Positions 1 to 29,811 are shown, counted from the first letter of the stretch. The stretch: DNA of 32,000 nucleotides from Nostoc sp. PCC 7120 = FACHB-418 (GCF_000009705.1 NC_003272.1:3600001-3632000); one strand, 5' to 3'. Notes: generated by a model not told the origin, from the sequence alone. A program made the numbers and translations.

Positions 1-624
1 GAAAGTGGAGCGATCGCCCAGTTACAATTACCAGAGAAGACAGAGTTAAGTTCCTTTAGTGCGATCGCCTGCGGCCCTGGTTTAACGAAAGATGCTACAT
101 CTATTGTGGAAGAAGTCTTAGCAAGCGATCGCCCTTTAGTTCTCGATGCCGATGGTTTAAATATTTTGGCACAGTTGGGGACAATACCCACACTGCAACA
201 GCGCCCAGCAGTAACAGTACTCACACCCCACACAGGCGAATTTCAACGATTGTTTCCTGATGTTGCTGATGCTAAACATGATCGAGTCAAAGCCGTGCAG
301 GAAGCAGCCACCCAAAGCGGTGCGGTGGTATTGTTAAAAGGAGCGAGAACTGCGATCGCCAATCCTCAAGGTTCAGTATGGATTAATCCCGAAAGTACGC
401 CGGCTTTAGCTCGTGGTGGTAGTGGCGATGTGTTAACGGGGTTATTGGGTGGATTGTTGGCACAAGTGGCAAATAAAGAAATACCTGTAGAAGATATTGT
501 GGCTACGGCTGCATGGTGGCACGGGCAAGCAGGTATTTTAGCCGCCAGTGAGCGCACAGAGTTAGGCGTGGACGCATTTACGTTGTCACAGTATTTGTTG
601 AAGGTGATTGTTGGTCGCTCTTAG
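1..624 (+). CDS. nnr: NAD(P)H-hydrate dehydratase domain (C-terminal part of Nnr/YjeF); the 5' end lies outside the window
   Basis: Frame 1 is open from nt 1 into the track ORF at 106. The translation carries YjeF_C/carbohydrate-kinase signatures: LLKGARTAI, GGSGDVLTGLLGGLLAQ and WWHGQAG. Confidence 0.8.
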   Translation, partial: ESGAIAQLQLPEKTELSSFSAIACGPGLTKDATSIVEEVLASDRPLVLDADGLNILAQLGTIPTLQQRPAVTVLTPHTGEFQRLFPDVADAKHDRVKAVQEAATQSGAVVLLKGARTAIANPQGSVWINPESTPALARGGSGDVLTGLLGGLLAQVANKEIPVEDIVATAAWWHGQAGILAASERTELGVDAFTLSQYLLKVIVGRS

Positions 625-665
625 GCTGCTCTAAACTTAAGATAATTAAACATTATATAAACACT

Positions 666-896
666 ATGAGCTATCGCAATATTATCACTATTGAACCAGA
701 TAAACGAGGTGGTAAGCCCTGTATTCGACGAATGCGAATTACAGTGTACGATGTTCTGGGGTGGTTAGCTGCTGGTATGTCCCATGCAGATATTTTAGAA
801 GATTTTCCTGAATTGACAGAGGAAGACATCAGAGCCTGTCTAGAATTTGCTGCTGATCGTGAACATCGTTTAGTTGCTTCAGTGGGTGATGCTTGA
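666..896 (+). CDS. DUF433-family small protein (antitoxin-like)
   Basis: 76 aa. The pattern IEPDKRGGKPCIRRMRITVYDVL...ILEDFPELTEEDIRACLEFAA is typical of DUF433. Its stop overlaps the start of the next ORF. Confidence 0.8.
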   Translation: MSYRNIITIEPDKRGGKPCIRRMRITVYDVLGWLAAGMSHADILEDFPELTEEDIRACLEFAADREHRLVASVGDA

Positions 897-1225
897 AGTT
901 ACTTTTTGATCAAAATTTGAGTCGCAAATTGGTGACAAGATTGGCGGACATATACCCTGGTTCTAGCCATGTTCAGTTTCATGGGTTGGCAGAGAAGACT
1001 GATACCGAAATATGGCAATTTGCTAGAACCAACGACTTTTGTATTGTGACTCAAGACGCAGATTTTGCTGAGAGAAGCCGCCTGTATGGTTCTCCGCCTA
1101 AAATTGTATGGTTACGCTGCGGCAATGTTCCAACTAATCAAATCGAAGTCTTAATTCGTTCTGGAGTAGAAGCAATTGAAGAGCTTTTAAATAACCCTAA
1201 TTTACATTGCTTAGAACTCTATTAG
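893..1225 (+). CDS. DUF5615-family PIN-like (Mut7-C-like) protein, the putative toxin partner of DUF433
   Basis: 110 aa. MKLLFDQNLSRKLV...IVTQDADF resembles DUF5615/PIN-like proteins. The TTG start sits in a 4-nt TTGA overlap with the upstream stop, which indicates translational coupling. Confidence 0.7.
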   Translation: MKLLFDQNLSRKLVTRLADIYPGSSHVQFHGLAEKTDTEIWQFARTNDFCIVTQDADFAERSRLYGSPPKIVWLRCGNVPTNQIEVLIRSGVEAIEELLNNPNLHCLELY

Positions 1226-1305
1226 TATAGATATGTTTTTCTCAAAAGTATCATGGTGGTAGCCGAGACTATTATGTGACTGATTAGCTATCATGAGCGA
1301 ATTTA

Positions 1306-2052
1306 TTATGATGCTTTCAAAGTTTTTATCGCACTAGCCTGAGATACTCTCTCAAGCCATATTTCCTTGTACAGGTTCATCTCTTGTGGAGTTATAATGA
1401 ATTCATTATAAGAACCATCGTTAATCAAATAAATTAACGCTGCTTGTTCAACAGGATATAGAGTTTCAATTGGGATATAGTAAGCTGCTAATTGAATAAT
1501 CTTATCCTGAATCCAATTTATGGAAACTTTGGGCTTTATAGAAGTTTTGAAGTCACTAAGGGTTAAAGTTTTTCTATAAAAACCTAAGTGGTCAATTTTA
1601 CCAAAATACCGATATTTGAAGCTTACAACAAATTGTTCTGATAGTATAGTTTCTCCAAAATTGGGCAACAATGTATTAAGAGATTGAAGATAATTTTGAT
1701 AAAGTTTGTCAACAGGTTTAGCTTTTTTTCCCATTAAGTGAGAATGAAGATAAGCATGAATAGCATTTCCTGCTTTAACTGCTTCATTTCTAATACGGTT
1801 AGCTTCTTGTTGCCCTACTCTAAGCATCCACTCACGAAGAGCTTCTTTAGAGCTTTCTTCTTGTGTTAGTTTCAGAATATTGCTGACGCTGCGAAGAGGA
1901 TTCTGTTTATTTGATTGTATACCTTGGGCTATATAGCAAGACTCGCCATTTAAAATTACTCTAGATAAAATAGGTAAATTAGATTCTTTATGGGTTAGGG
2001 GATAAAGTGTTCCATCAAAATGACGATGGTAGAGTGCTGCTTCTTTCAACAT
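1306..2052 (-). CDS. RecB/Cas4-like PD-(D/E)xK nuclease, candidate effector of the RT cassette
   Basis: 248 aa. The ordered motifs are GNAIHAYLH (aa 95-103), GKID (D154, nt 1591-1593), SDFKT (D167-x-K169, nt 1546-1554) and QLAAY (Q187-x3-Y191). There is no C-terminal Cys cluster. The start lies 36 nt downstream of the RT stop on the same strand. Confidence 0.6.
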   Translation of the reverse strand: MLKEAALYHRHFDGTLYPLTHKESNLPILSRVILNGESCYIAQGIQSNKQNPLRSVSNILKLTQEESSKEALREWMLRVGQQEANRIRNEAVKAGNAIHAYLHSHLMGKKAKPVDKLYQNYLQSLNTLLPNFGETILSEQFVVSFKYRYFGKIDHLGFYRKTLTLSDFKTSIKPKVSINWIQDKIIQLAAYYIPIETLYPVEQAALIYLINDGSYNEFIITPQEMNLYKEIWLERVSQASAIKTLKAS

Positions 2053-2088
2053 TATTCTTACAGTTATTGAATTGAACTGAATAAATAT

Positions 2089-3009
2089 TCAATTTTCATT
2101 TGTTTGAGTATTGTTAGCTTTATGAATCTGCTGTACCTGTGATTTTAAACCTTTCAACTTACTCATTAGATGAGCATAGGTGTCAGGATGGGTTTCTTTA
2201 GAGATTTGCTTGCGGATACTGTACATTTTTTTGTGCTGTCGATTAGGAATTTTTAAAACCCCTTTTTCAAAATCAAGGATCACGCCAGTTATTTTTCGCG
2301 AGTTTTTTCCAATATAATATTTTTCTTTCTTTGTATTACTACTTAATCCGTACCGATGAAATTTCTTTTTAATCTGCCAAATCAAATTACGGCTTACATA
2401 GTCTCCCGATATTGTTACATCGTCCATATAGACGGTAAGAATACAACCTGCATCCTCAACAATATTATTAATTTCCTCCCACATATCTATATGAGCAAAG
2501 TATGACAAAATTGGACTCAAGGGGCTTCCAGTTGGAAGATGTTCTTTATAGGTAGATAGTTTTGTTAAAATTGCCGCTACATCTGGAGAGCATTTCATCC
2601 GTGTGTGGAAAAACCAATAAACACGTTTTGATTTTGTGGATGGAAAGTATTTCACAATATCTAGACTGCTTATCACATAACTATTTAGATGAGCTTTTGC
2701 ATTACTAACATAAGAGCGTCCCTTTGTTGGTGCATGAATATATTTAGGTATTTCAATTCGCTTGAGAAGCCCTTCAATTCGCTTTTGAATAAGCTTTAAT
2801 TCATATTTTGGTTTTTCCACAAGACGAGATTTTTTTCGCCTTGGATGAATAATTTCTTTTTCTATATATAAACTTTCCGAGCGAGCCAATTGTATGAGCC
2901 TACTGCGGCTTACGCCTAATAAAGTTGCAAGTTTTGCTTTAGATTGCAAACAATAGAAAGGTGATTGGTCTAGTTTATAACCTATTTTTTTAATCCTCAG
3001 CACAGGCAT
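2089..3009 (-). CDS. Retron-type reverse transcriptase
   Basis: The layout is colinear with retron RTs as I remember them (for example Ec86): KPKYELKLIQKRI, SNAKAHLNSYVISSLDIVKYFPS (NAxxH...D..FFPS), LPTGSPLSPILS, the catalytic YMDD (nt 2419-2430) and RKITGVIL (VTG-like). I prefer the ATG at 3009 (MPVLRIKK) over the TTG at 3063. It overlaps the upstream HTH gene by 20 nt. Confidence 0.85.
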   Translation of the reverse strand: MPVLRIKKIGYKLDQSPFYCLQSKAKLATLLGVSRSRLIQLARSESLYIEKEIIHPRRKKSRLVEKPKYELKLIQKRIEGLLKRIEIPKYIHAPTKGRSYVSNAKAHLNSYVISSLDIVKYFPSTKSKRVYWFFHTRMKCSPDVAAILTKLSTYKEHLPTGSPLSPILSYFAHIDMWEEINNIVEDAGCILTVYMDDVTISGDYVSRNLIWQIKKKFHRYGLSSNTKKEKYYIGKNSRKITGVILDFEKGVLKIPNRQHKKMYSIRKQISKETHPDTYAHLMSKLKGLKSQVQQIHKANNTQTNEN

Positions 3010-3298
3010 TACCAGACCTTTCAGCAATAAAGTTGAGGATTGCAATAATCTTAGAAGATACAAAATTCCTCAATTTTTCCGTTTTTACATCCTTGTCTAA
3101 GTTTTCCGAAAAGAACATAATTGAGGATACGGGTATATCAAATAAACCAGAATAACGATTAAGTAAATCAAGGGTGGGAATTTTTTTACCTGATTCAATT
3201 TCCGAAAGATACGACTTGGATATTCCTAGTCTCTCTGCCATCTCCTTTTGAGATAAATCATGGAATACCCTCATCAACCTTAGAGCCTCATTCAACAT
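2990..3298 (-). CDS. XRE-family helix-turn-helix DNA-binding protein
   Basis: 102 aa. LSQKEMAERLGISKSYLSEIESGKKIPTLDLL is a classic Cro/C1 HTH. It is on the same strand as the RT and overlaps its start. Confidence 0.85.
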   Translation of the reverse strand: MLNEALRLMRVFHDLSQKEMAERLGISKSYLSEIESGKKIPTLDLLNRYSGLFDIPVSSIMFFSENLDKDVKTEKLRNFVSSKIIAILNFIAERSGNACAED

Positions 3299-3355
3299 AT
3301 TTAGTCTTCTTTGGCTAGAGGGTCTGTAATAGAGTTATATAAAAGAGTTAACAGT

Positions 3356-3517
3356 CTAGTCTTGCCACAAATCGATCAACCACTTCAAAATTTTGAAAAT
3401 GACTGGGCCAATTTGAAACAATAGACGAAGCGTTTGAGGTTTGCGGAGCCATTTTAGAAACCGCTCATAACGCTTTTTCGACTGTTCCTGCCGTTTGTCA
3501 GATTCTGAATAATTCAT
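3356..3517 (-). CDS. Possible 53-aa small protein with a basic N-terminus and a hydrophobic/amphipathic C-terminus (below the ORF-track cutoff)
   Basis: Hand translation gives MNYSESDKRQEQSKKRYERFLKWLRKPQTLRLLFQIGPVIFKILKWLIDLWQD. The ATG at 3517 is preceded by GGGAGAG about 7 nt upstream. It ends 57 nt upstream of the HTH gene on the same strand. Confidence 0.3.
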   Translation of the reverse strand: MNYSESDKRQEQSKKRYERFLKWLRKPQTLRLLFQIGPVIFKILKWLIDLWQD

Positions 3518-3530
3518 CAGAGACTCTCCC

Positions 3531-3848
3531 TATAAAGGTGTTTGCACTCACTTACAGGAAAGTAAATGAGTGTTGCCTCAAACAAACCCGGAGAACGGCA
3601 GTTTTAACCCTCTTTATACCGGCGCAGCCCTTTGCCAAGGCTGCGTTTGTATTGTGCTTTTTCAGTACCTTAATTCGTTAAAGATTTCAGTAGCATTAAT
3701 TACACTACAGATTTCTTTAAGTTCAGTACACAATAGATTACTACTGAGTAGCTAACGAAATTTGTTTACTGAGCAAAATACGGTAGAAGATGAAACATCT
3801 TCCTCAGATCGTAATGACGATCCAGTGAGTGGCAAATGTCTCCTTTAA
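3531..3848 (-). ncRNA. Candidate retron msr-msd-like structured RNA (leader of the RT cassette)
   Basis: A long-range imperfect inverted repeat pairs 3533-3538 with 3842-3847, 3541-3545 with 3832-3836, and 3546-3552 with 3824-3830, about 18 bp in total. On the minus strand GG follows the 5' arm directly. Local hairpins then follow at 3807-3822 (6 bp), 3786-3802 (7 bp), 3678-3720 (13 of 16 bp), 3622-3646 (8 bp, GC-rich) and 3545-3572 (10 of 11 bp). Confidence 0.3.
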
Positions 3849-3934
3849 CCTGACTGAACATAGTCTAACAGATATTTGTGAATTTTGTTCGCTACTAGCG
3901 AATATTTTTTAGAATCACTTTCACTCTTTGATCA

Positions 3935-4753
3935 CTACTTGCGTTCTTCCATGCCAAAAACGCGCCGGACAAGAGACTGTATCAAACTAGGAGTCAATTG
4001 ATAAGCTGCCTTCCAAAAGTTAGCTGAACCAACGACGACATCAGAACGCTTTTCTTTGACTGCACTCCAAATTGCTTTGGCTACGTCTTCTGGTTTTTCT
4101 AACACAGGCATTTGAATCGCCTTACCTACTAATTCAGTCCGCGCCTGAGCCATTTCCTCATCTTTACCACGAAAAATGGCTCGTTCCATAAGTTGGGTGC
4201 TGATGAAGCTGGGATAAATGCCGCTAACGTGAATGTTTTTAGGTGATAACTCTGCGTGTAGGGATTTTGTTAACCCTGTTATGGCGTATTTGCTGGCTGT
4301 GTAAGGCACATGATAAGGAATAGGTTCTAAACCACCAATAGAACTGACATTCACAATAGTTCCTGCACCACGCTGGAGAAAATGGGGCAATATGGCATGA
4401 ATGGTATGGATATAACCCCACAAATTAGTATCAATAATTTGATGCCAATCTTCTAAGCTGAAATTTTCCACAGAACCTAAACAAAAGATACCTGCATTAT
4501 TAATTAATACATCTACTTGACCAAAATGAGCGATCGCCTTTTGCATCATGTTATTGACTTGTGTAGCATCTTTCACATCGGTAGAAATGGCGATCGCTTG
4601 TTGTCCCATTTCCCGTATCTCCGTGGCGATCGCTTCTAAACGATCAAGTTGGCGAGCTGCCAGCACAACATTATAGTTGTGACGAGCAAATAATAATGCT
4701 GTGGCTTTGCCAATGCCTTGAGATGCGCCTGTGATAATTACTGTGTTAGTCAT
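3935..4753 (-). CDS. Short-chain dehydrogenase/reductase (SDR) family oxidoreductase
   Basis: Motifs are TGASQGIGKATA (TGxxxGxG), NNAG and the YTASK catalytic Y-x3-K. I prefer the start at MTNTVIITGAS (nt 4753) over the track start at 4816. Confidence 0.85.
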   Translation of the reverse strand: MTNTVIITGASQGIGKATALLFARHNYNVVLAARQLDRLEAIATEIREMGQQAIAISTDVKDATQVNNMMQKAIAHFGQVDVLINNAGIFCLGSVENFSLEDWHQIIDTNLWGYIHTIHAILPHFLQRGAGTIVNVSSIGGLEPIPYHVPYTASKYAITGLTKSLHAELSPKNIHVSGIYPSFISTQLMERAIFRGKDEEMAQARTELVGKAIQMPVLEKPEDVAKAIWSAVKEKRSDVVVGSANFWKAAYQLTPSLIQSLVRRVFGMEERK

Positions 4754-4982
4754 ATAGCTGTTGACTTGAGCTTCTACAATACACAAACACCTGAAAATGC
4801 TTGAATACAAATCCATGTAATACTATCTGAGTCTTTAATATCTCTTTCCATGTGTGTATCTTTTTGATTGATGAGCCACAAAGCCAATCACAGCCAGTTA
4901 AGCCTTAGGATTTTAGGCGAGGTAAGAAAAATAATCAGCCTGCAAGTACACAATCTCAAGTGCAACAAAGAATATACAACTA

Positions 4983-5011
4983 TTGACGAAATGATATTTG
5001 GTACATAATCT
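4983..5011 (+). promoter_or_regulatory. Candidate sigma70-type promoter for the 5059 gene
   Basis: TTGACG (4983-4988), a 17-nt spacer, then TAATCT (5006-5011), about 45 nt upstream of the ATG at 5059. Confidence 0.3.
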
Positions 5012-5058
5012 TGGAATCTGATGAATAACAGGTGTAAATTTATCTGCTTGTATTATTT

Positions 5059-5454
5059 ATGGGAATGATCTTATTCGTTGTCTTATGCGTTTGGGCAATC
5101 GTAAATTTTATAGGTTTATGCTCAGTTGTAATCTCATTCATTCGTTGTCGTACTGTAGCAGGATACCGAAATATTGCGATTATCGGAGCGGTTTTCATCC
5201 CAGCGATCCTTGTATTTTTAACTTTTTTGGATCTGTTAAAGAATAAACCCGTTCCTGGCCCAATCGCTACTTATATTCAGGCATTCGTAACTATCGTCTG
5301 GTCTAAAACTTATTTAATTTGTTTTTTGGGTGCTTGTGTAACTGCGGCAATTACCTTGTTGAAGCAAAATGCTATTCGTCGTTATTCAGCACTTGCTTGG
5401 GGTTTTCTGATTTCATCTGTTTCGGTTTGTGCATTTGTATTGATCAAATTTTGA
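5059..5454 (+). CDS. Hypothetical multi-pass membrane protein
   Basis: 131 aa with about four hydrophobic segments. I recognise no motif. Confidence 0.5.
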   Translation: MGMILFVVLCVWAIVNFIGLCSVVISFIRCRTVAGYRNIAIIGAVFIPAILVFLTFLDLLKNKPVPGPIATYIQAFVTIVWSKTYLICFLGACVTAAITLLKQNAIRRYSALAWGFLISSVSVCAFVLIKF

Positions 5455-5480
5455 TGGCAATGCTATTGCAGAGATTGGTA

Positions 5481-6809
5481 TTAACGAGATTCTTGGAGGT
5501 AAGGCAAATCTGCTGGACGATGCAGCACACTCATGGTTTTACTAGACAGGATTACACGAACGTGGCGATCGCTCCCTAAATAAGTATGTAGCCAAGTGAG
5601 TAACACTAGCAATCGACTGCGGTAGCCAGGCAGATAAACTAGATGAACTCCCAACCACATTAACCAAGCCAAGAAACCTGTAAACGCAAACGCGCCGATT
5701 TTCCCCACACCTGAATAACAACCAATAATTGCCAATCTACCTTTATTAAAATAACTAAAAGGCTTTGGTGATTTCCCTCGTATTTGCTGCTGAATATTGC
5801 GTGCTACCGCCACACCTTGCTGAAGCGCTTCCGGTGCAACCCCAGATAATGACTTACCGTTCTTTTCCACATAAGCCAAATCCCCAATTGCATATACATT
5901 GGGATGTTCCAACACTTGTAAGGTGGGATGAACAACAATTTTGCCCTTATGCGCCACAGGTAACTCCTCTGATACTCCGGGGAGGTTGGCTTCTAAACCC
6001 GCAGTCCAAATTACACTGGCACAGGGAATAATTTCCGCGTTGTCCAGGTGGACAAATCCCTCTGTAAGTTGACTGACTCTCGTTTGCAGGTAAACTTCAA
6101 CTCCTAGCTGATGCAATTTTTTGTAAGTGTAGTTTCCTAGCTTTTTTGGGAATTCGACTAATAAGCGATCGCCCGATTGCACTAAAATTATTTTCACTTC
6201 CCCAAAATCTATGGTGGGACAATCTCGACGCAAGCAGCCTCGCAGCATCTCTACCAAAGCACCCGCCATCTCCACCCCAGTTGCACCACCACCCACAATG
6301 GTAAAAGTTAGTAATTGTTGCCGTTTTGCTGCATCAGATTCTTGAATAGCTTGTTCAAAACAGGAAAAAATATGATTGCGTAGGGCAACAGCTTCTTCTA
6401 AACTTCTCATGGGAAAAGCGTATTCTTCAGCACCGTTAACGCCCCAAAACTGAGTCCGACTACCAGTCGCCAGCACCAGAAAGTCATAATCAATTGCACC
6501 CTTAGCTGTTTTGACAATTTGCCCAGAAAAATCAATCTGCTCAACCTCAGCCATGAGAAACTGAACCTGAGGCTTGTGATGTTGCCTTCTATAGTTAAAA
6601 GAGAAACGCCGTAAAATCGTCCGAATGGGGTAAGCAATGTATTCTGGTTCTATTTGCCCAGTGGCTACCTGATAAAGTAACGGGACAAAAGTGTGATAAT
6701 TGTGGCGATCGATTAGCAATACATCTGCACCAGAATGAGCTAAAGATTGGGCAGCTTGTAAACCACCAAATCCAGCACCAACAATAACAACGCGGCGATT
6801 CCTCATCAT
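5481..6809 (-). CDS. Type II NADH dehydrogenase (NDH-2), an FAD/NAD(P)-binding oxidoreductase
   Basis: It has an N-terminal VVIVGAGFGGLQAA dinucleotide fold, a second fold at TIVGGGATGVEMAG, and a C-terminal AIGD motif. The track start at 6836 is a TTG. The ATGATG at 6809 preceded by GAGGGG is more plausible. Confidence 0.85.
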   Translation of the reverse strand: MMRNRRVVIVGAGFGGLQAAQSLAHSGADVLLIDRHNYHTFVPLLYQVATGQIEPEYIAYPIRTILRRFSFNYRRQHHKPQVQFLMAEVEQIDFSGQIVKTAKGAIDYDFLVLATGSRTQFWGVNGAEEYAFPMRSLEEAVALRNHIFSCFEQAIQESDAAKRQQLLTFTIVGGGATGVEMAGALVEMLRGCLRRDCPTIDFGEVKIILVQSGDRLLVEFPKKLGNYTYKKLHQLGVEVYLQTRVSQLTEGFVHLDNAEIIPCASVIWTAGLEANLPGVSEELPVAHKGKIVVHPTLQVLEHPNVYAIGDLAYVEKNGKSLSGVAPEALQQGVAVARNIQQQIRGKSPKPFSYFNKGRLAIIGCYSGVGKIGAFAFTGFLAWLMWLGVHLVYLPGYRSRLLVLLTWLHTYLGSDRHVRVILSSKTMSVLHRPADLPYLQESR

Positions 6810-27153: not shown

Positions 27154-29811
27154 ATGGAACCTTTAACTACTGCTGCGATGTCTGACGACAAGCTGCAACC
27201 CTGTGGAAACAACAAAACCAAACGCATCTACGCAATTAGCTCTGTAGTCAGCAATAAAACCTTAACAAAAATGAGTAAGAGAACAGTTAAGAGATTATTA
27301 ACTGTCAGTGCAGTTTCTTTCTCTTGTCTCTGGTTGTCTGTAATGCCAATGAGTAAGGTATGGGCGCAAATTAGTCAAGATCCAGAAATTTCTACCTATA
27401 TTCAACAGTTAAAAGACAAAGATGCAAATGTTCGCTTTAATGCTGCTTCTGCCCTGTGGAACATGGGAGGGGAAGCAAAGGCAGCAATTCCCTCTTTGAT
27501 TCTGGCTTTGCAGTCCGACAAAGATGCAAATGTTCGCTCTACTGCTGCTTTTGCCCTGGGGAGCATGGGAGGGGAAGCAAAGGCAGCAATTCCCTCTTTG
27601 ATTCTGGCTTTGCAGTCCGACAAAGATGCAAATGTTCGCTCTACTGCTGCTTTTGCCCTGGGGAGGATGGGAGGGGAAGCAAAGGCAGCGATTCCCTCTT
27701 TGATTCAGGCTTTGCAGTCCGACAAAGATGCAAATGTTCGCTCTACTGCTGCTTTTGCCCTGGGGAGGATGGGAGGGGAAGCAAAGGCAGCAATTCCCTC
27801 TTTGATTCTGGCTTTGCAGTCCGACAAAGATGCAAATGTTCGCTCTACTGCTGCTTTTGCCCTGGGGAGGATGGGAGGGGAAGCAAAGGCAGCGATTCCC
27901 TCTTTGATTCAGGCTTTGCAGTCCGACAAAGATGCAAATGTTCGCTCTACTGCTGCTAATGTCCTGGGGAGCATGGGAGGGGAAGCAAAGGCAGCAATTC
28001 CCTCTTTGATTCTGGCTTTGCAGTCCGACAAAGATGCAAATGTTCGCTTTAATGCTGCTGATGCTTTAGCAACAATAAGTGCCAGCTTTCAAGACAAGGC
28101 AGGTACTATGGCTTTTGCAGAGTTAGACAAAGCCATAGAGGATTTAGAAAAAGTACTCAAAGCGTTAAAGGATAATAAAGATAAAAATTTAGACACCAGC
28201 ATTACCTCTGTCAATCGTTCTCTTGATGCCTTAAAAACCAAAAGACAATCTCGCCTCCTTGACAGAACTTTAGAATGGATGACGAAAAACCCTTGGGTAA
28301 CAGGGGGATTAATTTACATTATCTTCTTCCCCTCCCTCTGGCTCATCTTGTTGCGGGTGCGTCCTTTGTGGGTATTACACGTCAACAATGCCCTTAAACC
28401 TTTATCTAGTTTTAAATTACCCGATGCCCTTGGCGGTGTAGCTTTCCCGATTCGCACATTATTATTTATCGAATTTTTTAACTATCACCCCAGAGTCCTT
28501 GATGCTTGGGTAGAAAAACGCCTCACCTCTGCCAAAGAAGGATTTAACAAAAAGAAAACTGTCACAGAACGTTCGATTTTCGTCCCCATTCCCGTAGTTT
28601 TAGATAATAATAATCTCGCTCAATTTACAGCCACAGACTTACAACTAATATTTAACCAAAAACGTGCAACATTATTAATTTGGGGAGAAGGTGGTGCAGG
28701 TAAAACCAGTCTGGCTTGTACTTTGGCGCAATGGGCAATGAATGACAATGAAAGTCAGCGCCTATCTAAACACCAAATGTTACCAGTCTTAATTGAACAA
28801 GAATTAGATCATCCTTTAAAAGAAACTATCGGCGGACAACTGCAAGCACTTATCAGCGAAACCAAAACAATTGACGATGAATTGTTAACTAATTTACTCC
28901 GTCAACGCCGAATTTTAGTCATAGTAGATCACTTTTCGGAAATGAGTGAAGCGACACGCAACAAAATTCATCCCGCAGAAAAAGATTTCCCGGTAAACGC
29001 CCTCATTGTCACTTCTCGCGTAGAAGAAAAATTAAACGAAGTACCCAAAACCACAATTCAACCCCTGCGGGTTGCTGGTGATAGACTCTCATCTTTCATG
29101 GAAGCTTATTTAACACAACGCCGCAAACGTGATTTGTTTACTGATGTGGAATATTTTGATGCTTGTCACCGTCTTTCGTTGATGGTAGGACAACGCAATA
29201 TTACCGTGTTACTGGCGAAACTCTACGCTGAACAAATGATTGCCACAAAAGAAGGAACAGCAAGTGATTTACCAGAAAATATCCCTGATTTAATGCTGGC
29301 ATACCTCAACGAACTTAACCGGGATAGATTAGAAACTGAACCAAATAATCGCACTGTCCAAAGAGATGCGAAGGTAATTGCTTGGCAATGTCTAAAAACC
29401 ACTTTCCGTCCCACATCAGCCAAACTAGAAGATATCTTAGCCGCCCTTGATGACGGTAATAAAGTAGAAGAACGTTTACAACATTTAGAAAAACGCCTGC
29501 GTCTCATTCAAACTATCGGCGCAGCCCAAGATAAAATCCGCTTGGCATTAGATCCCTTAGCTGAGTATCTAGCTGGTTTATATTTAATAGATAGCTACGG
29601 TGGAGATACAGCATCTTGGCGAGGCTTTCTCTCACAAGTCAATACTATACCCGATGTGGAATTAATTAAAGGTTTCCTCTTAGCCGTGCAGGATTGTTGT
29701 TTAGCATTGGGCAACGAAGCCGGAGTTCCCGACTTTGTGGCGGACGAACTAGCCTTGAAGACTGCTTTAACTACACCAGCACCTACTGTGTTAGTTGGTA
29801 ATTCGCAATGA
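27154..29811 (+). CDS. Large protein with a signal/anchor, a HEAT-repeat array, a TM segment and a STAND-like (NACHT/NB-ARC-like) P-loop NTPase
   Basis: A signal-like segment (LLTVSAVSFSCLWLSVMPMSKVWAQ) is followed by six full and one partial 34-aa HEAT/PBS-lyase-type repeats (DKDANVRSTAAFALGRMGGEAKAAIPSLILALQS). The TM segment is WVTGGLIYIIFFPSLWLILL. Walker A is GEGGAGKTSLA (28684-28707), Walker B is ILVIVD (28912-28929), and ALIVTSR follows. The start may be the ATG at 27271 instead of 27154. Confidence 0.8.
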   Translation: MEPLTTAAMSDDKLQPCGNNKTKRIYAISSVVSNKTLTKMSKRTVKRLLTVSAVSFSCLWLSVMPMSKVWAQISQDPEISTYIQQLKDKDANVRFNAASALWNMGGEAKAAIPSLILALQSDKDANVRSTAAFALGSMGGEAKAAIPSLILALQSDKDANVRSTAAFALGRMGGEAKAAIPSLIQALQSDKDANVRSTAAFALGRMGGEAKAAIPSLILALQSDKDANVRSTAAFALGRMGGEAKAAIPSLIQALQSDKDANVRSTAANVLGSMGGEAKAAIPSLILALQSDKDANVRFNAADALATISASFQDKAGTMAFAELDKAIEDLEKVLKALKDNKDKNLDTSITSVNRSLDALKTKRQSRLLDRTLEWMTKNPWVTGGLIYIIFFPSLWLILLRVRPLWVLHVNNALKPLSSFKLPDALGGVAFPIRTLLFIEFFNYHPRVLDAWVEKRLTSAKEGFNKKKTVTERSIFVPIPVVLDNNNLAQFTATDLQLIFNQKRATLLIWGEGGAGKTSLACTLAQWAMNDNESQRLSKHQMLPVLIEQELDHPLKETIGGQLQALISETKTIDDELLTNLLRQRRILVIVDHFSEMSEATRNKIHPAEKDFPVNALIVTSRVEEKLNEVPKTTIQPLRVAGDRLSSFMEAYLTQRRKRDLFTDVEYFDACHRLSLMVGQRNITVLLAKLYAEQMIATKEGTASDLPENIPDLMLAYLNELNRDRLETEPNNRTVQRDAKVIAWQCLKTTFRPTSAKLEDILAALDDGNKVEERLQHLEKRLRLIQTIGAAQDKIRLALDPLAEYLAGLYLIDSYGGDTASWRGFLSQVNTIPDVELIKGFLLAVQDCCLALGNEAGVPDFVADELALKTALTTPAPTVLVGNSQ
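27415..28066 (+). repeat. Tandem 102-nt coding repeat (six full units plus the conserved start of a seventh)
   Basis: Unit starts fall at 27415, 27517, 27619, 27721, 27823, 27925 and 28027. The middle units differ at only a few positions. Confidence 0.95.

Follow-up and report, generated by a model that had tools for sequence, protein, structure and literature searches.

A Type VI retron of Nostoc sp. PCC 7120 carrying an MGME1-like exonuclease as a clade-specific fourth gene

We describe a retron in a 32,000-nucleotide stretch of DNA from Nostoc sp. PCC 7120 = FACHB-418 (GCF_000009705.1 NC_003272.1:3600001-3632000; hereafter the window, from whose first letter all positions are counted). Five co-directional features on the minus strand, spanning positions 1306-3902, make up this locus: a leader, a 53-codon open reading frame (ORF), a helix-turn-helix (HTH) gene, a reverse transcriptase (RT) gene and an ORF coding for a protein of 248 amino acids (aa). 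The first four of these are, judged by their sequences, a canonical Type VI retron of the kind already catalogued, whereas the fifth, an MGME1-like exonuclease of the PD-(D/E)xK superfamily, is new as a clade-specific fourth gene on an otherwise ordinary core. The explanation that we favor, with a probability of roughly 0.55, is that of a Type VI retron with an added exonuclease that acts on the retron's own single-stranded DNA (ssDNA).

Identification of the retron core

The RT gene lies at 2089-3009 (minus strand). A mechanical reading of the frame extends over 2089-3063 from a TTG at 3063, but the ATG at 3009 is the real start and yields a protein of 306 aa identical to BAB74660.1. The match to the PADLOC model RT_VI is essentially full-length (E = 6e-100, 332 bits, with residues 34-320 on model positions 1-278 of 279), and the second-best PADLOC model, RT_III-A, reaches only 148 bits. 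The Pfam model RVT_1 is matched with E = 4.3e-13, and the NCBIfam model of the retron St85-family with E = 2.8e-38, which is below that model's cutoff. The retron RT motifs, namely NAKAH (NAxxH), YMDD and ITG (VTG-like), are all present in the translation, as a preliminary description of the locus had held. By the margin between the two best models the RT belongs to the retron class, to the exclusion of group II intron, diversity-generating retroelement and Abi/UG enzymes, and the same preliminary assignment is thus borne out by the search with hidden Markov models (HMMs). A literature search for retrons in PCC 7120 yielded only a figure of the myRT paper, in which the genome is credited with a retron-class RT.

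The gene preceding the RT (2990-3298, minus strand) encodes a Cro/C1 (XRE)-type HTH protein of 102 aa, which matches the PADLOC model HTH_VI over positions 1-91 of 92 (E = 5.5e-38) and Pfam HTH_3 with E = 1.6e-13. Its size falls within the range of 91-110 aa seen in Type VI, and its gene overlaps the RT start by 20 nucleotides (nt; 2990-3009). Further upstream, the 53-codon ORF (3356-3517, minus strand) encodes a small protein (SP) whose N-terminus is basic (DKRQEQSKKR) and whose C-terminal helix is hydrophobic (LRLLFQIGPVIFKILKWLIDLW). This ORF is conserved in 11/11 retron-bearing loci examined, even where gene callers had missed it, and tblastn finds it in nearly all cyanobacterial Type VI loci. 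The cyanobacterial SPs measure 53-55 aa as against 75-79 aa for the named Type VI SP clusters (cl2075, cl2760, cl3272 and cl3897), and the present one probably belongs to the unclustered "Large" lineage.

The Type VI architecture was catalogued by Mestre et al. 2020, with 158 entries and its RTs in clade 3, and two representatives have been characterized. In Vpa2 (Zhang et al. bioRxiv 2025), a hybrid RNA (hyRNA) of ~470 nt combines the msr-msd with the translationally repressed coding sequence (CDS) of the SP; the RT, the HTH protein and the RNA form a complex, and reverse transcription is repressed by the HTH protein. The multicopy single-stranded DNA (msDNA) of Vpa2 accumulates only upon triggering by phage recombination proteins and is required for translation of the SP. 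In Sen3 (Garcia-Rodriguez et al. bioRxiv 2026), the SP is a toxin, the HTH protein its antitoxin and the ssDNA is constitutive, the trigger being inhibition of the host RecBCD. The Nostoc locus shares with these retrons a Type VI RT, an HTH protein of ~100 aa of the Cro/C1 type whose gene overlaps the RT start, the order SP-HTH-RT, an upstream small protein with a hydrophobic C-terminus, a conserved structured RNA that extends from the leader into the start of the SP gene and has hairpins near the ribosome-binding site (RBS), and complementarity of the non-coding part to the coding region of the SP. Membership in Type VI is therefore indicated by the full-length RT_VI and HTH_VI matches, the conserved SP, the structured leader and the matching architecture; the RT itself is assigned by the PADLOC models. 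By analogy with Vpa2 and Sen3, the SP is predicted to be the toxic effector of the retron, and the HTH protein would be an SP-neutralizing factor and a repressor of the RT, more than a transcription factor.

These observations bear on the preliminary description, which had proposed an undescribed RT-based defence system with a RecB/Cas4-like nuclease as its effector and the XRE protein as a mere transcriptional regulator. The physical layout on which it was built, that is the ORFs, their minus-strand order, the 20-nt overlap and the 36-nt gap between RT and nuclease, is accurate, and the five-part co-directional unit is real. It was equally right that catalogues of retron partners contain no stand-alone PD-(D/E)xK nuclease: neither this nor an MGME1-like partner is present among the accessory proteins in Mestre et al. 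2020 or in the two Type VI preprints, and our literature searches returned no paper linking retrons to MGME1 and nothing relevant for a cyanobacterial retron exonuclease with an HTH protein. However, four of the five parts belong to a catalogued type, since RT, HTH, SP and leader are those of Type VI; the 53-aa ORF and the leader correspond to the SP toxin and the hyRNA of the characterized Type VI retrons; the nuclease is neither Cas4 nor RecB (see below); and most Type VI retrons, including close relatives of this one, work without a nuclease. An undescribed system of that kind is hence scarcely credible, and the division of labor that it implied is replaced by one in which, by analogy, the SP is the likely toxin and the HTH protein its neutralizer. 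What survives of the new subtype that had been envisaged is the nuclease as a clade-specific fourth gene, the remaining architecture being that of Type VI.

The fourth gene encodes an MGME1-like exonuclease

The 248-aa protein is encoded at 1306-2052 (minus strand), 36 nt (2053-2088) after the RT gene. It consists of a catalytic core of approximately residues 53-247, preceded by a family-specific, beta-rich N-terminal extension (approximately residues 1-50). An alignment of the family reveals four motifs of the RecB type, E139, G151xxD154, D167xK169 and Q187xxxY191. Six of these residues (G151, D154, D167, K169, Q187 and Y191) show no variation in 53 sequences, MGME1-like proteins among them, and E139 is invariant in the close family and at least 90% conserved in the wider alignment. 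D154 and K169, singled out in the preliminary description as catalytic candidates, are accordingly conserved in all or nearly all aligned homologues. This invariance of the catalytic residues is maintained over a family that has diverged to ~50% identity.

Scans with the single sequence against Pfam, PADLOC and NCBIfam return only sub-threshold matches to PDDEXK_1, Cas4 and AddA, and PADLOC-DB v2 contains no model for this protein. In contrast to these, a profile of the family searched against the PDB with HMMER recovers human MGME1 (E = 5e-13) in an alignment that covers nearly all of the core and brings the four motifs into register. A structure model computed with AlphaFold2 from an alignment that includes distant relatives has a predicted local distance difference test score (pLDDT) of 92.6 and a predicted template modeling score (pTM) of 0.89; it replaces a first model built from 27 close homologues only, which reached a pLDDT of 60. 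In Foldseek searches with this model human MGME1 accounts for all of the top nine PDB matches (E = 5e-14 to 1.5e-11), with template modeling (TM) scores of 0.63-0.71 by query length and 0.67-0.87 by target length, and the nuclease domains of DinG, AdnAB, Cas4, ACE1, Dna2 and RecE appear only at E-values of 1.6e-4 or worse. The viral fold library BFVD yields phage PD-(D/E)xK exonucleases with TM scores of ~0.7. The protein shares with MGME1 (PDB: 5zyu, 5zyt, 8xa9) the fold over ~200 residues, the motifs E/GxxD/DxK/QxxxY and a similar core size; it differs in its 22-23% identity, in being bacterial and retron-linked, and in the extra beta-rich N-terminus of ~50 residues. On sequence and model together, it is an MGME1-like PD-(D/E)xK exonuclease, and its homology suggests an ssDNA-specific exonuclease activity that would require a free end.

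Of the labels given in the preliminary description, PD-(D/E)xK stands, while RecB/Cas4-like does not. Membership in the PD-(D/E)xK superfamily and the QxxxY motif are shared with the Cas4/RecB domain, but the Foldseek E-values for Cas4 are at least nine orders of magnitude worse than those for MGME1. Identification as Cas4 was considered in view of a weak PADLOC match (E = 0.0019) and rejected: the protein has a single cysteine (C39) and the family no conserved cysteine column, so that an Fe-S cluster is absent; TM scores to Cas4 and ACE1 are 0.26-0.39; and no cas genes accompany the nuclease in the window or in the related loci with gene annotation, its neighbors in the window being the retron genes, a toxin-antitoxin-like pair and an SDR gene. 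A RecB, AddA or AdnAB identity was likewise set aside, as the protein is a stand-alone one of 248 aa with no helicase fusion; the match to the AddA C-terminus is weak and local (E = 0.0037), and AdnAB is found by Foldseek with E of ~2e-4 and TM scores of 0.37-0.46.

The phyletic spread of the family is narrow. In 5.8 billion proteins, 26 clusters of homologues were found, all cyanobacterial and all annotated as "hypothetical". An exhaustive HMM search shows that the retron-linked family forms a tight island, with two representatives at 50% identity, followed by a gap from E = 5e-49 to 1e-31. Beyond this gap lie ~2,600 distant relatives of roughly 220 aa that lack the first ~50 residues; some of them are named "genome maintenance exonuclease 1", and insect MGME1-like proteins appear at about 1e-39. 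The protein falls in the PHROGs family phrog_298, "exonuclease" (E = 4.6e-30), and tblastn against phages detects 502 phage records, mostly of T4-like cyanophages, at 25-34% identity. The phage proteins, such as those of S-CAM7, S-SKS1, B3/B23 and Pelagibacter phage HTVC008M, are clear homologues, but their genes sit in replication and recombination modules, they lack the N-terminal extension, and the retron family forms a cluster separate from them. Phage exonucleases are probably the evolutionary source of the retron gene.

Linkage of the exonuclease to the retron

In 8/9 homologue neighborhoods the nuclease gene directly follows (SP)-HTH-RT, gene order and strand being unchanged, with gaps ranging from a 4-nt overlap to 98 nt. 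The flanks of these neighborhoods are completely different, and one of them is on a Scytonema plasmid. A scan of species-representative genomes with an RT profile produced 80 Type VI loci; in this set the nuclease profile is positive in 10/28 informative cyanobacterial loci, negative in 18, and matches in 0/46 non-cyanobacterial loci. The nuclease directly follows the RT in all 10 positive loci. The distance between the two is 7-88 nt when taken from the tblastn match; with called starts it becomes a small overlap to ~70 nt, and 161 nt in one locus with a broken RT (L038). The latter, from Nostoc desertorum CM1-VF14 (L009 4082-4982 = L038), appears to have the RT split into ORFs of 252 aa and 41 aa with HTH and nuclease intact, which reflects either a decaying retron or an assembly error. 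The nuclease-negative loci have heterogeneous downstream genes, for example MazEF- or VapBC-like pairs, and no alternative conserved fourth gene was found downstream of their RTs. An ORF of 80-100 aa does recur downstream in closely related Nostoc genomes, which is likely to be synteny. Among the sizeable downstream families, the nuclease alone recurs in unrelated genomic contexts. Co-conservation of HTH, RT and nuclease, which the preliminary description had named as a point to check, is therefore upheld by both the homologue neighborhoods and the species scan.

In a neighbor-joining tree of the RTs the loci with the nuclease group in one subclade, within which it has been lost once (locus L028). 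The pairwise identities of RT and nuclease are correlated with r = 0.95 (Mantel p ~2e-4), as compared with 0.70 for RT and HTH and 0.67 for RT and SP. The simplest history is a single acquisition in the ancestor of a cyanobacterial sub-lineage, followed by co-inheritance under selection. Given that the order is kept in at least 10 species with unrelated flanks, the sequence evidence argues that linkage within the four-gene unit, including the nuclease, is under selection.

These patterns also bear on the alternative that the nuclease is a passenger, that is, a phage-derived gene inserted once beside the retron and co-inherited in a small mobile island with no functional coupling. Such a history would agree with a family that is small and confined to one clade, with the existence of a stand-alone homologue, with the dispensability of the nuclease for retention of the retron at L028, and with the mobile or defence-island contexts of the cassettes, in which integrase fragments and toxin-antitoxin pairs are found. 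However, a passenger would hardly be expected to sit immediately behind the RT at distances from a slight overlap to a few tens of nt, which in most loci are too short for a promoter, to keep all of its catalytic residues invariant despite divergence to ~50% identity, or to retain its place in at least 10 species with unrelated flanks. We consider it improbable.

The stand-alone homologue (P0026) is the most distant member of the family, at 51% identity. Its gene (L006 5001-5786; also L007) is divergent from a gene for a 1222-aa HTH-SNF2/DEAD-helicase-NOV_C protein on a plasmid-like contig bearing ParAB, and lies near a faint-SMODS protein and a YhcG-like nuclease; this locus may represent a different defence context for the same nuclease. 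In Trichocoleus sp. DQ-A3, phage-integrase fragments (L008 2237-3016 and 5870-6511) bracket the four-gene cassette, and a gasdermin-protease gene is located nearby, a setting which indicates a mobile or defence island.

Promoter and leader RNA

The unit reaches beyond position 3848, where the preliminary description had ended it, to a conserved palindrome and promoter at 3862-3902. The palindrome, TTCGCTAGTAGCGAA (TTCGC-N5-GCGAA; 3888-3902, minus strand), lies just upstream of the promoter. This inverted repeat is kept in 7/9 aligned leaders, the extracts from the remaining two (L011, L012) being out of register or too short, and the genes upstream of it differ from locus to locus. It is a plausible candidate for an autoregulatory operator of the HTH protein. 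A third half-site-like element (TTCGCA/TTCACA) occurs nearby at 3877-3882, and a generic scan flags the palindrome as a plus-strand terminator-like hairpin. The alignment of the leaders further reveals a conserved extended -10 element, TGT-TAGACT (3862-3870, minus strand; consensus TGnTATAnT, or TGnTA(T/G)A(n/C)T with variants), which the generic -35/-10 scan missed. Transcription is predicted to start near 3855.

The non-coding leader measures ~340 nt. The minus-strand segment 3300-3856 folds with -176 kcal/mol, z = -7.4 against 100 shuffles, and together with the compensatory changes described below this substantiates the earlier claim of a structured leader. The aligned leaders came from loci with unrelated flanks. 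The 5' domain of the retron RNA (3785-3855, minus strand) contains two hairpins (3805-3824 and 3785-3803), for which RNAalifold on 19 loci identifies 16 pairs, 8 of them with compensatory double changes. Within this domain, a single-stranded conserved block, UUGCCACUCAC (3825-3835, minus strand), is found in 25/25 cyanobacterial leaders and in some proteobacterial ones. The following arm (3652-3784, minus strand) is variable and strongly self-paired; its sequence and length differ between loci, yet in the window it forms a long composite stem between the conserved domains. By analogy with Vpa2, it is a candidate for the msd, the template of reverse transcription.

The 3' non-coding domain, or riboregulator (3518-3651, minus strand), comprises hairpins at 3623-3645 and 3545-3572 and carries an invariant AAACUGCCGUUCUCC / GUUUGUUUGAGGCAA tract. 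The hairpin at 3545-3572 (CACUCAUU...AAGUGAGUG) is located ~15 nt upstream of the Shine-Dalgarno sequence GGGAGAG (3524-3530). For this domain RNAalifold on 18 loci identifies 20 pairs, 8 of them with compensatory changes, and its layout agrees with published descriptions of the Type VI hyRNA. The minimum-free-energy fold of the window sequence was discarded for fine structure, as it pairs the 5' GGAGAC tract across hairpin 2 and conflicts with the hairpins supported by covariation. A permissive Rfam scan of positions 1-6000 returned no RNA family, the only matches being chance-level ones to miRNAs and snoRNAs, and a comparison by eye of the 5' end with a conserved tract after the SP stop found no convincing complementarity for an a1/a2-like closing helix.

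Two long-range relationships were observed in this RNA. The first is a direct repeat: the block UUGCCACUCAC at 3825-3835 resembles GGCAACACUCAU (3566-3577), the 5' strand of the RBS-proximal hairpin, and in some loci the same position is altered in both copies (ACUUAC / ACUUAU). This repeat recalls the 7-nt direct repeats proposed for pairing between msDNA and riboregulator in Vpa2. Moreover, UUGCC (3831-3835) and GGCAA (3573-3577) are complementary, and three sequences show a U-A to C-G compensatory change between them that represents ~2 events; a pairing between the two is suggestive only. In the second, the invariant non-coding tract ACUGCCGUU...GUUUGUU (~3581-3601) is complementary to GACAAACGGCAG in the SP CDS (3479-3497, the DKRQ codons), and this coding stretch is almost invariant in DNA across loci. 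This complementarity suggests a long-range pairing between the non-coding RNA and the CDS, as in the cl2075 lineage of Type VI.

A possible role of the exonuclease on retron ssDNA

On the basis of Vpa2 and Sen3, the core of the system may be pictured as follows. An autoregulated promoter would drive a structured hybrid RNA comprising the reverse-transcription template and the SP coding sequence, with HTH and RT following. The RT and the HTH protein would form a complex with the RNA, in which the HTH protein restrains the RT and/or neutralizes the SP; phage recombination proteins or nuclease inhibitors would then change the amount or the state of the reverse-transcribed ssDNA and so unleash the SP, leading to abortive infection. 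The fourth gene is predicted to be co-transcribed with the RT, and we propose that its product acts on the retron ssDNA, either keeping the msDNA low through turnover or trimming or debranching it to an active form. A phage ssDNA-binding or annealing protein, or an inhibitor, that blocks the nuclease would cause the msDNA to rise and switch on the SP. In E. coli hosts such processing of the msDNA is attributed to RecBCD and other host nucleases.

Several lines of evidence point in this direction. Published accounts of MGME1 describe it as an ssDNA-specific bidirectional exonuclease; when it is lost, 7S DNA, a small ssDNA species, builds up in an elongated form. The authors of the Vpa2 study propose basal turnover of the msDNA by RecBCD and other nucleases, and RecBCD inhibition extends the Vpa2 msDNA; in Sen3, inhibition of RecBCD is the trigger, and the ssDNA is debranched by unnamed host nucleases. 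Nostoc sp. PCC 7120 lacks recB(ec) and recC. Moreover, the nuclease gene lies in the RT operon and co-evolves most tightly with the RT, and the SP is intact wherever the nuclease is present. By the analogy that we propose with the host nucleases of Vpa2 and Sen3, the enzyme would determine how much retron ssDNA there is or how it ends, and its inhibition by phage would be the trigger; the host enzymes differ in being encoded elsewhere by the host, acting in trans and having an unrelated architecture, the Nostoc nuclease being inside the retron operon. On this evidence we place the action of the nuclease on msDNA at about even odds. The further proposition, that this is the first retron to encode its own msDNA-directed nuclease, with the RecBCD sensing step built into the operon, is put forward tentatively and with rather less than even confidence.

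Another reading of the fourth gene is that the nuclease is a second effector which, once the retron is triggered, degrades phage or host replication and recombination intermediates alongside or downstream of the SP. Nucleases are common among the effectors of retrons of types I, VII, IX and XIII, the effectors of the related types IV and V are located 3' in the operon as the nuclease gene is here (Mestre et al. 2020), and the closest relatives outside the family are phage exonucleases acting on phage DNA. Against this, the SP, which is the demonstrated toxin of Type VI, is intact in every nuclease-positive locus, so that the nuclease would supplement the toxin and not replace it; MGME1-type enzymes, which require ssDNA with free ends, are not known as toxins; a cognate inhibitor gene is not apparent; and both the sister loci and L028 keep the retron without the nuclease. 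We therefore regard a second effector as unlikely, and the nuclease as more likely an accessory acting on retron ssDNA than an effector. Other roles of the nuclease share what probability remains beyond msDNA processing, effector and passenger.

Action on the retron's own ssDNA has, in turn, to be weighed against several observations that speak for caution. The wider family consists of phage replication and recombination exonucleases, and the fold would suit an enzyme working on phage or host DNA equally well. One sister clade of Type VI retrons in Nostoc is without the nuclease, its hosts presumably lacking RecBCD as well, and L028, which is nested inside the nuclease clade, has lost the nuclease and keeps SP-HTH-RT; the retron can therefore be retained without it. 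P0026, the most distant member of the family, stands alone with no adjoining retron. Finally, the correlation of r = 0.95 shows co-inheritance and not necessarily physical interaction.

Genomic setting

The cassette occupies an AT-rich block, with a GC content of 0.32-0.35 over ~1250-3250 as against 0.44-0.48 in the flanks. It is abutted by a convergent pair of genes at 666-1225 (plus strand) which overlap by 4 nt and encode proteins with the Pfam domains DUF433 (76 aa, E = 5e-27) and DUF5615/PIN-like (110 aa, E = 6e-37). This pair looks like a VapBC-like toxin-antitoxin module, and both the AT-rich patch and the toxin-antitoxin-like neighbors are as they had been described from inspection of the DNA. 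Toxin-antitoxin pairs also adjoin related cassettes in L001, L002 and L010.

With one genome per species, the RT scan found no locus more than 72% identical to the RT of the window. The representative genome of this species is apparently without the retron, which suggests that it is strain-variable in the Nostoc PCC 7120 / Trichormus variabilis group. Elsewhere in the window, and unrelated to the retron, a HEAT-repeat protein of 885 aa is encoded at 27154-29811 (plus strand); sister strains carry it under the annotation "PBS lyase" or "NACHT C-terminal helical domain", and several assemblies have it in fragments.

Implications

The four-gene variant departs from the Type VI retrons described so far in having an MGME1-like exonuclease gene 3' of the RT, none having been reported for this type, and in its cyanobacterial host, neither Type VI preprint mentioning cyanobacteria. 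It thereby adds this phylum to the host range of Type VI discussed to date and gives bacterial MGME1-like nucleases a defence context. It also implies that pipelines which call "retron VI" from RT and HTH alone miss a co-evolving component.

Type VI retrons are the least canonical of the retrons, in that their msDNA is scarce or uncoupled from activation, and the accounts of Vpa2 and Sen3 give conflicting views of the connection between ssDNA, RecBCD and toxin release. The exonuclease bears on an open question, the control of these retrons by nucleases and ssDNA levels: a variant with a dedicated ssDNA exonuclease, in a host that is genetically tractable and without RecBCD, makes it possible to study within one self-contained system how a nuclease affects retron ssDNA and how phages set off the response. 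If the proposed role is true, the sensing step that Type VI retrons delegate to the host RecBCD in enterobacteria would, in this cyanobacterial lineage, be built into the retron operon itself.

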